Under the pieces are notes generated by a model, which worked only from the letters and a program-made list of their open reading frames with translations, ran no database searches and was not told where the DNA came from. The translations under genes were made by a program, and so were the position numbers. 64,000 nt of DNA, from the NCBI GenBank assembly GCA_011364985.1, contig RDOC01000001.1, positions 358,532 through 422,531 of the forward strand, written 5' to 3'. Origin of the DNA: Candidatus Thorarchaeota archaeon (GTDB taxonomy: Archaea; Asgardarchaeota; Thorarchaeia; Thorarchaeales; Thorarchaeaceae). Below, piece by piece: positions 8,144-39,914 of the stretch (within the stretch, counting starts at the first letter, position 1; every line of letters starts with the position of its first letter).

Positions 8144-8866
8144 CTATTCTAATCGTTTCTGGAACATCATCGCAATTGGAGCATTGGCCTGTCTCCATTC
8201 AGCAAGCTTTCCTTCGTAGTTCAGTGGAACTGGATGACGCCCATGATTTCCAATTACTATGAAGATAGTGCCAGCATGTGCCTGCTTAAGGAGGACCTTG
8301 ACCCAGTTGTCAGTTCTTCTTACTATCTTTTCAAGGAGAGTCTTTGGTGGAGTCCTATGACCGTACTGAGCATACAGACTCTCAAAGTCAAGAAAGTGCA
8401 TGTAGAGGAATTCTGCGCGAGCGACATGTTTAGTTGCCTCGACGTAGGTTTGCATATCGTCACGTCTGTTGACAGTGTAGGCGGGATCAAAACCGAAAGT
8501 CAGCATATCGTCCTCCCTGCATATGACCTGAACGGCCTTTCCAAAACCTCGTGTATACTCAACGAGATGAAATGATTGAGATGGTCCACGCAATATCTTG
8601 GAAACAAGAGGTATTGCATAGGGGTCGTCAGTTTCAATCAGCGCAAGAGCTTCCATGTTTTTGATCAATGCCTCTGGCTTGTAAACGACAGCCTCGAATA
8701 GACCGAAGTTGTCAATCACGATAACAATCAATCTACCGGACTTGAACTTGGCTAGAATCTCGGCGTTCGCAGGCGGCATTTCTTCTGGAATTTCCATTCC
8801 CATTAGATTCAGAATTGTTGAGGGAAATTCGGCGGCTGAAGTTCTAACCTGCGGAAACGACACCAA
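8144..8866 (-). CDS. Divergent alkaline-phosphatase-superfamily-like protein
   Basis: VIVIDNFG, LDFESL...GH and VIGNHG resemble the AP-superfamily metal motifs (DxxG, DxxGH, xDHG). Confidence 0.55.
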   Translation of the reverse strand: MVSFPQVRTSAAEFPSTILNLMGMEIPEEMPPANAEILAKFKSGRLIVIVIDNFGLFEAVVYKPEALIKNMEALALIETDDPYAIPLVSKILRGPSQSFHLVEYTRGFGKAVQVICREDDMLTFGFDPAYTVNRRDDMQTYVEATKHVARAEFLYMHFLDFESLYAQYGHRTPPKTLLEKIVRRTDNWVKVLLKQAHAGTIFIVIGNHGRHPVPLNYEGKLAEWRQANAPIAMMFQKRLE

Positions 8867-9029
8867 GAGACCTCACAGAGCAACTATGAATCCTTTCATT
8901 TATTGGATTTCTGTATCTACATAAAAGCCGGAGATTTTTGTGCTTATACTTATCCCTGATGCCCTCAACTAATGGTATCTGATGGAAGCATTAATAGACA
9001 TAGAAACGCAGTGCGCTTGTGGACGTGCC

Positions 9030-9983
9030 ATGACAATAAAGAACATTGTGTATAATCAAAGTATCAAATTTATTCTCTCCGGCGGAAAAGGAGGAGTAGG
9101 CAAAACCAGCGCTGCAGGAGCAATGGCCGTCCTTTCTGCTAAGAGCGGACTAAGAACTCTTGTATTGTCGACCGATCCAGCGCACAGTCTTAGTGATAGC
9201 TTCAAGCAAGACCTCTCAGGAGGAGAGATTATACCTGTGGAGGGCATAGACAATCTGTGGGGCATGGAGATCAGCTCTGAGAAAGGTATGCAGGATTTTC
9301 AAAACGCCATGGATGGAGGAGGGACGGAGATGGAGATGGCGTCCCAACTTCTTGGAAGCATAGGAGATATGACTCCTCCAGGATCAGATGAGGCGATGGC
9401 CTTTGGGAAGATCTTGGAATTTCTTGATGATATGTCATATGACAGAGTCATTTTCGATACAGCGCCCACCGGTCATACACTTAAGCTACTTGAACTTCCC
9501 GAGCTATTGGACAGCTGGCTTGGAAAAGTCATAACAATGAGACAACGACTCAGTTCAACCCTTGCAGGAATTAGAGCCATGTTGGGCGGGCGAGAACAAG
9601 AAGAAACGGCATGGGAAATGCTTCAGCAAACAAAGGAGAAGATAAAGTCAGCAAAGCTGGAGCTACAAGACCAAGAGAAGACCCAATTTGTTATTGTGAT
9701 GATACCGGAAGCAATGGCGGTCTTCGAAACCCAGCGGCTCTTGTCCAGTCTTAATACATGGAATATCCCAATGAATAACATAGTCGTCAATCAGCTGATC
9801 CCTGAGAATCCGGGCTGCGAATTTTGCAGCTCAAGAAGACAAATGCAGCAGAGGAACTTAGTAGACATCCGCGACCTCTATCAAGATATAGACATCGTAG
9901 AAGTGCCACTTCTTAACACAGAAATAGTGGGGATTGATAGTTTGGAGAATCTTGGCAGAATACTAATCGGGGAGGATCAATGA
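9030..9983 (+). CDS. get3: Get3/TRC40-like (single-domain ArsA family) ATPase
   Basis: GGKGGVGKT, STDPAH, DTAPTGHT and CEFC motifs; Met-rich substrate groove region. Confidence 0.88.
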   Translation: MTIKNIVYNQSIKFILSGGKGGVGKTSAAGAMAVLSAKSGLRTLVLSTDPAHSLSDSFKQDLSGGEIIPVEGIDNLWGMEISSEKGMQDFQNAMDGGGTEMEMASQLLGSIGDMTPPGSDEAMAFGKILEFLDDMSYDRVIFDTAPTGHTLKLLELPELLDSWLGKVITMRQRLSSTLAGIRAMLGGREQEETAWEMLQQTKEKIKSAKLELQDQEKTQFVIVMIPEAMAVFETQRLLSSLNTWNIPMNNIVVNQLIPENPGCEFCSSRRQMQQRNLVDIRDLYQDIDIVEVPLLNTEIVGIDSLENLGRILIGEDQ

Positions 9984-10081
9984 TGCGGTATATCTGGAAG
10001 AAAAGGCTGATAGGTCTATTCTTTGTATTCCTTTTCATAGCGTCAGTTTTTGCCGCCCTTTCACAAATCTATAAACCATAG
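9980..10081 (+). CDS. 33-aa single-TM microprotein (not in the ORF track)
   Basis: ATGA overlap with the get3 stop; GGAGG at 9971-9975; MMRYIWKKRLIGLFFVFLFIASVFAALSQIYKP. Confidence 0.65.
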   Translation: MMRYIWKKRLIGLFFVFLFIASVFAALSQIYKP

Positions 10082-10103
10082 ACATGAATAGACTAGAACA
10101 GCC

Positions 10104-10247
10104 CTAAACACCTTTAACACGTTTCACAACAGGAGGCCGTATCTTGTAAAGAATTCTTCCTCCGCAATAGGGACACTTCACACCTGGGAGTGTCTTGAGG
10201 CCTTCAGGAGTGACTTCTTTTGAACAGGTATGACATATATAGACCAT
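10104..10247 (-). CDS. rpo12: DNA-directed RNA polymerase subunit P (Rpo12)
   Basis: MVYICHTC...KCPYCGGRILYKIRPP. Confidence 0.93.
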   Translation of the reverse strand: MVYICHTCSKEVTPEGLKTLPGVKCPYCGGRILYKIRPPVVKRVKGV

Positions 10248-10350
10248 GGAATCACCACACGGGCCGACTGATTTCTTCGACCATTCAAGCAAAAGCGCGA
10301 GACTTGAGTTTATGAAGCTTTTCTTATAGTGCATCGAACTCCCTCTTGCA

Positions 10351-11934
10351 CTACTTCACAACCTCAGCTTCAAGCAATCCAGGGCTCAAGACTTTTGTTA
10401 TCTTTAGCATTAGCAGTGAACCTGCAGAATATCCACCCCTCACCGTCATTATTGGACCTTCTCCGAAAGGATAAACAATTGTGTAGCCGTGGCGACTCCA
10501 TGAGGGTTCAGCAGCAATTCCGCACAATGTTTTGCCAAGGTATCGATCCTTCTTGTTTCGATTAATGCGTGATGCAGTCTTTCTCAGCGGCTCACTCAAT
10601 GGATCATGGAAAGAAGATTCTGAAAAATGTGAGAAGGCGGATTCAGGAAGTGGACGAAACCCATAGAGTATGATTCGCTCAGCTCCTGCATCGCTGACCT
10701 CGTGCATGATTTTGACCGAAGCCTGCACAGATTCAGCCGTCTCACTAGGTAGGCCATAGATGAAATAGATATAGGGGAACATACCATGCTTCTTTGCAGT
10801 TTTCACAGCATTGACAACGTCGCTTGCGCTCCCACATTTCCCGATTTGTGCCATATGTATATCCGAACCAGTTTCAAGTCCTATATTAGGAGAGATTGAA
10901 GTTAGCCTCTTGGTCAATACGCCTGCAATTTCATCTGCGAACAGACATGCCTTTATGTTCTCAATTGAGAGATGGACATTTCCCGAGTTTATTTCTGGTA
11001 TTGCATTCAGATCATCAAGGAGAGATGCGATTGCATCGTTATTTGCAGGCGGTGCGCAGGGATTTGTTACTGGCGATTCGCCCCGTTGATAGTCTAGAAA
11101 GTCAGGCGCCTCAAGGACAATTCTGTGTACGCCAGAGGCCACCAATTCCTCGATTTCGTTCACGATGGATGCTGCAGAACGGCTTCTCGGAGGACCCCAA
11201 GTGTTTGGTACGCTGCAAAAGCCGCAGCCAGGAGGTATATTTTCAGGACATTCCAATCGTTCGTTCATATTGGAAGATTGGCAATTGCCGCAATTGGTAC
11301 ACTCTCGGCCGTCTGGAAGGGGAAGGGTCGTTCTTCCAAAATTGGAACAGCCTCGCAGAACCTCGACGTACACTCTAGCAGCTTGATAATCCTTATAGTC
11401 AACAATTCGTTCTGTAGAGGCCTTATAGTCATTAGACCATTCTTCAGAGGTGATAAAGCTCCGAGAGGGAGTTAAAAACAAGTCGTCATGATCCAGATAG
11501 GCGATGCCATCTATCTTCGAAAGATCTATATTCTCTGAGAAGAAATCCTGCTCCAGCAGGTTTTCAAGAGTTGCTTCGCCCTCGCCCATAACCAAGAGAT
11601 CGGGTTTCAGGGACTCCAAAACAGGTTTTGGATTGAATGCAATAGGACCACCTATGATCATCCGTCCGTGTGGCCTTTCGTGTTTCCAAATCTTAGCGAA
11701 TTTGACTGCTGCAGGAAGGTCCATAGTCATGGCGCTGATGGCAACATGGTTGTATCTCCTTAGCCGCTTCGGGATGACAAGAACATCTTCCATTCGCTGG
11801 ATTTTGCATTGAACCTTCTGTTTTTCCAATACTCCTGCAACTGCACGTGGACCGCATCCTATGGAATCGCGAGAACTCGTACGTCGTCCGACACCAGCGC
11901 TAAGCGCATCCACTATGAGAACTTGATCAGACAT
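10351..11934 (-). CDS. B12-binding-like domain radical SAM protein with C-terminal TRAM-like domain
   Basis: IIGGP and GEGE N-domain; RGC...GCGFC cluster motif; IGLETGS, IYGLP. Confidence 0.85.
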   Translation of the reverse strand: MSDQVLIVDALSAGVGRRTSSRDSIGCGPRAVAGVLEKQKVQCKIQRMEDVLVIPKRLRRYNHVAISAMTMDLPAAVKFAKIWKHERPHGRMIIGGPIAFNPKPVLESLKPDLLVMGEGEATLENLLEQDFFSENIDLSKIDGIAYLDHDDLFLTPSRSFITSEEWSNDYKASTERIVDYKDYQAARVYVEVLRGCSNFGRTTLPLPDGRECTNCGNCQSSNMNERLECPENIPPGCGFCSVPNTWGPPRSRSAASIVNEIEELVASGVHRIVLEAPDFLDYQRGESPVTNPCAPPANNDAIASLLDDLNAIPEINSGNVHLSIENIKACLFADEIAGVLTKRLTSISPNIGLETGSDIHMAQIGKCGSASDVVNAVKTAKKHGMFPYIYFIYGLPSETAESVQASVKIMHEVSDAGAERIILYGFRPLPESAFSHFSESSFHDPLSEPLRKTASRINRNKKDRYLGKTLCGIAAEPSWSRHGYTIVYPFGEGPIMTVRGGYSAGSLLMLKITKVLSPGLLEAEVVK

Positions 11935-39347: not shown

Positions 39348-39914
39348 ATGCAAGATCCAATCGCTGCCTTCATGTTGTGGTTCTCAACCACATTTCAGAT
39401 TTTCCAGGATCCTCCGCTGTCTGCAATCTTCATCCTGTTAGTTTCGATGTCAATCACAACCGTAAGCAATCTCGCCACAAAACACCTCACAGATGTGCGA
39501 CGGCTAAACCGATATCAGGCCGAGGTGAAACAGTACCAAGAAATGCAGAAGGAAGCAGAAAAAACCCAGAATGAGAAATTACTAAGAAAGGTTCGTAGGA
39601 GAAAGGCATACATTGAGAGAATTCAGGGAGAAATGCTCAAACAACGATGTAAACCGTCTCTGATTTTCCTTGTTCCGTTTCTCATTGTTTTTCAGGTACT
39701 AAGAGGATTCTACATTGACCCAATGACAGGCCTAGACAGCGTTGTAGCCGTGGTTCCATTTAATGTTCATAAGCTCCTACCATTTCTGGTCGGCTGGTTA
39801 GGAACATCCACACCATATGGATTTGGTTTCTACTACTTTGGATTCTACATGTTTGTCGGATTGGGAATGGGGCAAATCCTACAGAGAATTATGGGTATAT
39901 CCTTAACAGGCTAG
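39348..39914 (+). CDS. EMC3/TMCO1/Get1 (DUF106, Oxa1-superfamily) insertase-like protein
   Basis: TM1 - cytosolic coiled coil - TM2/TM3 topology; canonical position after adk. Confidence 0.85.
   Translation: MQDPIAAFMLWFSTTFQIFQDPPLSAIFILLVSMSITTVSNLATKHLTDVRRLNRYQAEVKQYQEMQKEAEKTQNEKLLRKVRRRKAYIERIQGEMLKQRCKPSLIFLVPFLIVFQVLRGFYIDPMTGLDSVVAVVPFNVHKLLPFLVGWLGTSTPYGFGFYYFGFYMFVGLGMGQILQRIMGISLTG

Follow-up and report, generated by a model that had tools for sequence, protein, structure and literature searches.

What is encoded in the short open frame whose start overlaps the stop codon of get3? In the window, which is the whole stretch of 64,000 nucleotides of Candidatus Thorarchaeota DNA analysed here, the gene for a Get3-type ATPase is followed by a small open reading frame (sORF). 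A preliminary description had taken its product for an unannotated microprotein with one transmembrane helix, possibly a substrate, cofactor or membrane tether of Get3. The locus thus raises the question of whether this frame is a gene and, if so, what so small a product would have to do with the ATPase encoded next to it.

Organization of the get3 locus

Features of the locus are presented in Table 1. The gene upstream of the sORF matches the Pfam family PF02374 (1.7e-86, covering residues 29-329) and the NCBIfam model TIGR00345, the latter with 292 bits against a curated cutoff of 135. The nearest solved structures are archaeal TRC40 (3zq6, 7.6e-75) and then Get3 of M. jannaschii (3ug6, 1.8e-71), while fungal and human Get3 structures are matched at about 1e-60 and the arsenic-pump ArsA (1f48) at 1e-35. 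The product has one ATPase domain with a deviant Walker A, and the P-loop and the CxxC pair (C263 and C266), which bridges zinc in Get3 dimers, are invariant in the alignment of orthologues (alignment A3). The single domain, the CxxC pair and the best PDB matches to 3zq6 and 3ug6 identify the gene, at the level of its sequence, as tail-anchor-type Get3 and not as arsenic-pump ArsA. Its best match among named Get3 proteins is 85% identical, and the nearest ones are labelled Candidatus Thorarchaeota. The longest get3 ORF begins at 8982, and every orthologue aligns from the Met encoded at 9030. The 16 N-terminal residues of this longest ORF are therefore probably not translated, and the later start adopted in the preliminary description is upheld by the orthologues.

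Archaeal Get3/TRC40 of M. thermautotrophicus (3zq6) and M. jannaschii (3ug6) is covered by the same family models and shares with the window protein the single-domain ATPase, the CxxC pair and a high-scoring alignment over the full length. Unlike at the present locus, no report of a coupled microprotein was found for these two, and none was seen at the methanococcal and methanobacterial get3 loci among the background loci listed. Many relatives of the window's genome (e.g. at G018:C29:193361-195311) also have tandem, distant ArsA/Get3-like paralogues with about 30% identity to the window Get3. Such a tandem pair was not found in the window's genome, which is 74% complete.

Direct reading of the DNA agrees with the previously described ATGA overlap and with the GGAGG just upstream of it. 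The Shine-Dalgarno-like GGGGAGGA is spaced 4 nt from the ATG at 9980 and 7 nt from a second in-frame ATG (9983-9985), and purine-rich GGAG or GAGG motifs occupy the equivalent place upstream in most orthologous loci. Translation from the first ATG would yield 33 aa and from the second 32 aa. The ATG at 9983 is the likelier start, because the orthologous frames have 32 codons and their alignment begins at the second Met.

On the downstream side, the get3 unit is bounded by the convergent gene rpoP, which lies outside that unit. The rpoP ORF is 76 codons long, and its real start is probably the internal Met encoded at 10247, which would give a product of about 47 residues. Upstream, get3 has a divergent neighbour of 240 residues (window positions 8144-8866, minus strand), assigned to no Pfam family and matched only weakly, below threshold, by an NCBIfam phosphopentomutase model. 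This neighbour is kept in the Thor synteny block as a gene of 238-239 residues.

Table 1. Positions of the features discussed, numbered from the first nucleotide of the window
Feature	Position	Strand	Basis
get3 (TRC40/GET3-type single-domain ATPase, 317 aa)	9030..9983	+	PF02374, TIGR00345, PDB matches, orthologue start
Shine-Dalgarno-like GGGGAGGA within final get3 codons	9969..9976	+	read directly; contains GGAGG 9971-9975
ATGA stop/start overlap	9980..9983	+	get3 TGA at 9981-9983; ATG 9980-9982 opens sORF frame
Microprotein gene, 32 codons + TAG (10079-10081); 33 codons if from 9980	9983..10081	+	frame openness, pN/pS, profile
Basic N-terminal segment, residues 1-8, predicted cytoplasmic	9983..10006	+	N-end charge vs C-end
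Predicted single hydrophobic helix, residues 9-30, central invariant Ser21	10007..10072	+	hydropathy, conservation
rpoP/Rpo12 (zinc-ribbon RNA polymerase subunit), convergent neighbour	10104..10334	-	PF03604 1.7e-06, residues 32-66
EMC3/TMCO1-like gene	39348..39914		PF01956

Coding capacity of the sORF

Get3 was searched in 41 relatives and the DNA 3' of its stop codon was read, the set of loci from the same family (f1) being comprised of 23 (L002-L023 and L025). An ORF of 32 codons follows get3 in every one of them. It starts at -1, +2, +5, +6 or +8 nt from the get3 stop with ATG, GTG or TTG, and ends with any of the three stop codons, varying among loci. One further locus of the same order (L024) has a 33-codon version following a gap of 46 nt. 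The sORF frame is free of stops in all f1 loci (23/23), and the other five frames are stopped in 6 to 23 loci. Pooled over the f1 loci, in-frame pS is 0.76 and pN 0.305, giving a pN/pS of 0.40. The two remaining frames of this strand give 0.98 and 1.39, and in the sORF frame third positions have the highest entropy. Copies from family f12 independently show a pN/pS of 0.33, in frame only.

Judged by the open frame, the pattern of substitutions and the position of the starts, the segment 9983..10081 is a genuine gene that encodes a predicted membrane protein of 32 residues, and by the same signs it is co-transcribed and translationally coupled with the gene of the Get3-type ATPase. The preliminary description had named, as a result that would speak against a gene, a frame not conserved or interrupted by stops 3' of orthologous get3; run on these loci, the comparison came out in favour of the ORF.

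Conservation of this stretch could also reflect an RNA element belonging to get3 or rpoP, such as a terminator or a 3' UTR, as inverted repeats seen by eye around the sORF stop in several same-genus loci would allow. Openness specific to one frame, a fixed length of 32 codons and third-position-biased substitution are, however, unexpected of an RNA element. Rfam has no match in window positions 9700-10500, and the profile at the protein level reaches lineages with diverged DNA. Frame openness, pN/pS and cross-family profile matches effectively refute the identification as an RNA element, which we regard as extremely improbable. In L007, L011, L013 and other same-genus loci, the TGA stop of the sORF lies inside a short inverted repeat of the type CCCTGA...TTCAGGG. 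This repeat may be a terminator shared by the convergent sORF and rpoP, and it has no clear equivalent in the window.

Predicted topology and conserved residues

The window microprotein has a net charge of +4 in residues 1-9, a 20-residue stretch with a mean Kyte-Doolittle hydropathy of 2.36, and a tail of 3 residues with a charge of +1. Its 23 orthologues follow the same pattern, with an N-terminal net charge between +3 and +5 against +1 at the C-end, and a 20-residue helix of mean hydropathy 2.25-2.93. In all 23, this one helix is near the C-terminus and is followed by a tail of 2-3 residues, as is characteristic of tail-anchored proteins, whose single helix ends at most some 30 residues before the C-terminus and which lack a signal peptide. 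With about 8 residues ahead of its helix, the microprotein does not have the functional domain that tail-anchored proteins carry on the cytosolic side. The positive-inside rule, applied to the charge bias, predicts that the N-terminus is in the cytoplasm (N-in). Charge and hydropathy together support the tail-anchor-like topology proposed earlier from a basic N-terminus, one helix and a very short C-tail.

Among 38 distinct sequences, Ser21 is conserved without exception, Lys8 in 37, Leu17 in 35 and Phe18 in 33, and every sequence has K or R at position 6. Around Ser21, positions 20, 24 and 25 are mostly taken by small residues, and the serine is kept across five families in an almost gapless column of the alignment (A4). 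Measured as the 100-degree moment, conservation is not significantly one-sided along the helix (p 0.16).

Annotation status

A collection of 15 billion proteins does not contain the exact sequence of the window product, nor those of nine relatives. A profile search of 1.84 billion representatives disclosed 12 clusters, all of 32-36 aa and standing alone, whose names, where present, are "hypothetical protein" or "uncharacterized integral membrane protein", none of them functional. All five called clusters for which contigs were examined are located in the same Thor synteny block. The label "unannotated" given to the microprotein therefore holds for its exact sequence and has to be qualified by homologous clusters called elsewhere. 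The suggestion that the gene is too short for gene callers fits the figures well, since it is nearly always missed (12 called clusters against more than 100 carrying genomes). The microprotein is an example of a conserved gene family that is invisible to gene callers.

No fusion of the microprotein helix to Get3 was found among the 12 profile matches, given their uniform length, or among close Get3 homologues, which are without a C-terminal helix fusion. Long Get3 entries, of which three examples of 341-382 aa were read, were rejected as fusions because they are miscalls of the N-terminal start, and among longer Get3-containing proteins only tandem ArsA-type duplications turned up. Searches with the microprotein in Pfam, NCBIfam, PDB profiles and ESM Atlas features gave no usable match, and no description of it was found in full-text literature on archaeal Get3 receptors and Asgard Get3.

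Distribution and linkage to get3

Using a profile of Thor sequences (A1), one copy of the microprotein gene was detected in 81 of the 85 f1 genomes, representing all 16 genera, and in the sole genome of the sister family f2; Thor is here comprised of f1 and f2. The A4 profile extends the gene to 105 of 110 genomes in five Asgard families (f1, f2, f6, f12 and f15), where f15 corresponds to Baldrarchaeia according to NCBI labels, which are noisy, and f12 carries generic labels only. It is present in a single copy, except in three genomes with a second weak or nearby match. Its place is beside get3 in about 40 loci that were read, as well as in every pair of coordinates compared with the Get3 search. 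In all loci of f12 (8/8), f15 (3/3) and f6 (1/1), an sORF with the basic segment and the helix overlaps the end of get3 or comes shortly after it, and none linked to get3 was seen in the DNA 3' of this gene in 22 other Asgard families. When all 1219 ORFs of the other-family loci were compared with the Thor profile, the seven best matches were all sORFs downstream of get3 (E 1.6e-4 to 0.02). As background, 80 Get3/ArsA loci of other archaea and bacteria, among the matches listed and with no Thor loci included, contained one weak hydrophobic transmembrane sORF 3' of get3/ArsA. Weak profile matches inside long ORFs were discarded as noise due to transmembrane composition.

The get3-sORF pair is found in three downstream contexts, namely next to convergent rpoP, to a co-directional rpoP-like ORF, or to an ORF resembling the metallo-beta-lactamase fold. 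The co-directional rpoP-like zinc-ribbon ORF of f12 and the metallo-beta-lactamase-fold resemblance were both judged by eye. The linked state appears in three places on a tree built from 77 Get3 sequences, for which at least 3-4 gains or losses are needed, and nothing convincing was found among Get3 alignment columns that would separate lineages with the sORF from those without it. The entire EndA-to-TFB block is kept in synteny throughout Thor, and adjacency of the two genes there is for this reason partly inherited. At locus L057 (G039, f14), an ORF of 259 residues begins so as to overlap the get3 stop. Its product has a single segment of strong hydrophobicity near the N-terminus (maximum hydropathy 2.84) and is not the microprotein but a different membrane protein in the same coupled position.

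Weaker profile matches point to short frames apart from get3 in f21, f33, f22, f23 and f9, the one in f33 coming from the Thor-only profile. The unlinked frames of f21, f22, f23 and f9 are plausible homologues of the Thor microprotein, judging from the profile matches. In Candidatus Freyarchaeum deiterrae, as f21 is labelled, 873 kb separate the sORF from get3, and the sORF has a pN/pS of 0.17. In locus L031 (G149, with the same label), the unlinked sORF is situated between a DUF763 gene and two tandem genes of Ras-family small GTPases. The forms in f22, f23 and f9 are 45-52 residues long. Their polybasic N-tail is far longer than in the Thor form, their helix contains Ser, and most of them have a C-terminal Pro. 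The large size of family f9 suggests that it is Loki-type. In its genus g17 (L044, L189 and L192), a 50-residue ORF with polybasic and one-helix parts lies between a gene of 224-231 residues that belongs to no known family and a VTT/DedA-like gene. In L044 these are followed on the opposite strand by a trimethylamine methyltransferase (MTTB) gene, and an MTTB gene is also found beside the sORF in L040 (genus g75). As most Get3-bearing Asgard families are without a linked copy and probable homologues lie far from get3 elsewhere, the tie between the microprotein and get3 is, on this sampling of genomes, lineage-specific and not obligatory.

This distribution bears on the possibility that the microprotein is a passenger, i.e. 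a small membrane protein whose function and biogenesis are unrelated to Get3 and which shares its operon in some lineages, for instance one that regulates or stabilises a transporter or an enzyme as its subunit. Probable homologues elsewhere in the genome, distant from get3 in f21 and beside a VTT/DedA-like gene in f9, would be expected of such a protein, as would the patchy occurrence on the Get3 tree and an adjacency inherited in part with the EndA-to-TFB block. We nevertheless consider an unrelated passenger somewhat unlikely. In five families, with Get3 identities of only 44-57% to the window protein and with different genes downstream, the two genes overlap or are separated by a few nt, and no microprotein was seen in any genome of a family without Get3. 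The homology of the unlinked forms, on which the passenger explanation draws, is weakly scored by the profile (E-values between 6e-6 and 6e-4 per genome).

A putative Get3 client with its own membrane role

The explanation we put first, tentatively and as a possibility, is that the microprotein is a dedicated client of Get3 with a membrane role of its own. A peptide of 32 residues is about as long as the ribosomal exit tunnel, so that its helix would emerge only at termination. Co-translational targeting would then be impossible, and we infer that the protein would enter the membrane post-translationally and N-in, as would a tail-anchored protein reduced to its minimum. Owing to the stop/start overlap, the microprotein would be made in step with Get3, which most likely would capture the helix in its hydrophobic groove and then deliver it. 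After insertion, Ser21 and the small residues around it would pack against a membrane partner, the archaeal YidC/EMC3-like insertase complex being the obvious candidate, and the peptide would serve a separate function in that place. Such a role and such a partner are suggested by the invariant Ser and by the existence of unlinked relatives.

Several observations are in line with a client of Get3. Starts in f1 are tightly placed around the get3 stop, the pair is kept in nearly all genomes of the five families, and the pairing survives differing downstream genes. The background of similar sORFs is low both in the 80 loci listed and in the 22 Asgard families, and the length, N-terminal charge and helix hydropathy of the microprotein are all client-like. 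Ser21 invariance and the probable homologues apart from get3 in f21, f22, f23 and f9 agree with a role beyond being delivered. On the other hand, a chaperone with many clients has no obvious need of one client welded to its gene, and short hydrophobic peptides can insert unassisted or via YidC. Get3 columns do not tell sORF-bearing lineages from others, the conservation of a helical face is not significant, and the repeated gains or losses that the Get3 tree calls for also weigh against a client relationship. In a single run made without controls, complex prediction for the Get3 dimer and the microprotein, with ATP and zinc, returned a score of 0.01 and a mark of 0.32, which speaks neither for binding nor against it.

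The preliminary description had also drawn on an EMC3/Get1-like gene and on secY, both present in the window. The PF01956 match confirms the identity of the former. The EMC3-like gene and secY are about 30 kb away, within the usual archaeal adk-to-cmk neighbourhood, and lend no specific support to a GET link.

Tail-anchored clients of Get3/TRC40, such as Sec61-beta and SNAREs, likewise have a single, very hydrophobic C-terminal helix, a predicted cytoplasmic N-terminus and nearly no tail. The need for post-translational insertion would also be shared, going by the 32-residue length of the microprotein only. In contrast to these clients, the microprotein has no functional domain in the cytosol, where its 8 residues are predicted to be, and its gene is in an operon with that of the chaperone. 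Its conservation is concentrated within the helix, at Ser21, and its dependence on Get3 is putative. For archaea, delivery of tail-anchored helices as cargo was shown for one of the four Get3 homologues studied (PMC6593721).

Comparison with Get3 receptors and other small membrane proteins

The basic N-terminus brings up a role on the membrane side of the pathway, in which the microprotein would be a one-helix functional analogue of Get2/CAML with its N-terminus as docking site for Get3, perhaps packing on the EMC3/YidC-like insertase together with the EMC6-like partner of the latter. Like yeast Get2, mammalian CAML and AtGET2, the microprotein is genetically tied to Get3. It differs from them in having one helix instead of three and no linker, which in Get2 is long, as well as in showing no similarity of sequence. 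Binding of Get3 by the N-terminus and of a Get1-type partner by the helices, as in Get2, would be hypothetical for the microprotein. Get2, CAML and plant GET2 combine a positively charged N-terminus, with at least four Arg/Lys in a row, and three helices (PMC7817167), whereas most members of the microprotein family have three Arg/Lys (positions 6-8) and an additional one at position 2. Runs of Arg/Lys are longer in the possible unlinked homologues than in linked members.

A Get1/EMC3-like insertase is known from archaea together with an EMC6-like partner, and no Get2 has been recognised in them (PMC8675477). Lewis and Hegde found archaeal EMC6-like proteins and no Get2 (PMC8675477), which is in favour of a membrane-side partner of this kind. 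Further points in its favour are K/R kept at positions 2, 6 and 8, the much longer polybasic N-tails of possible unlinked homologues, a stop/start overlap that fits equimolar partners, and an invariant Ser21 with small neighbours that fits packing of helices. The proposal is nevertheless unlikely. About eight cytoplasmic residues flush with the membrane leave no reach towards Get3, basic residues beside a helix are predicted by the positive-inside rule alone, and one helix is present and not three. Moreover, 22 Asgard families with Get3 have no linked copy, and no Get3 surface column follows the presence of the sORF.

In its most far-reaching form, the proposal makes the microprotein the docking element that an archaeal GET-like pathway has so far lacked on its membrane side, and a one-helix forerunner or analogue of Get2/CAML, which we hold to be quite unlikely. 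Equally doubtful is the arrangement in which the Ser-centred helix would pack on the YidC/EMC3-like insertase, the basic N-terminus would recruit Get3, and the longer polybasic forms would represent the same device in its unlinked state.

KdpF, AcrZ and sarcolipin/phospholamban are proteins of about 30 residues with one helix, usually unannotated, and several of them are encoded in the operon of the machine that they bind. Size, the single helix and missed annotation are common to these proteins and the microprotein. Their partners are membrane pumps, whereas the operon partner here is a soluble chaperone ATPase, and the microprotein has no sequence similarity to them (no Pfam, NCBIfam or PDB match).

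Implications for Asgard archaea

The locus reveals a tiny membrane protein, as predicted from its sequence, held against get3 in about 100 genomes of the archaeal group closest to eukaryotes. Returning to the preferred reading of a Get3 client and to that of a partner, the microprotein is a specific and cheaply testable candidate, which may be the first defined natural client of archaeal Get3 or a membrane partner of it. If the docking-element explanation were true, Asgard archaea would have a simple Get3 receptor, which would give hints at the origin of the eukaryotic one.
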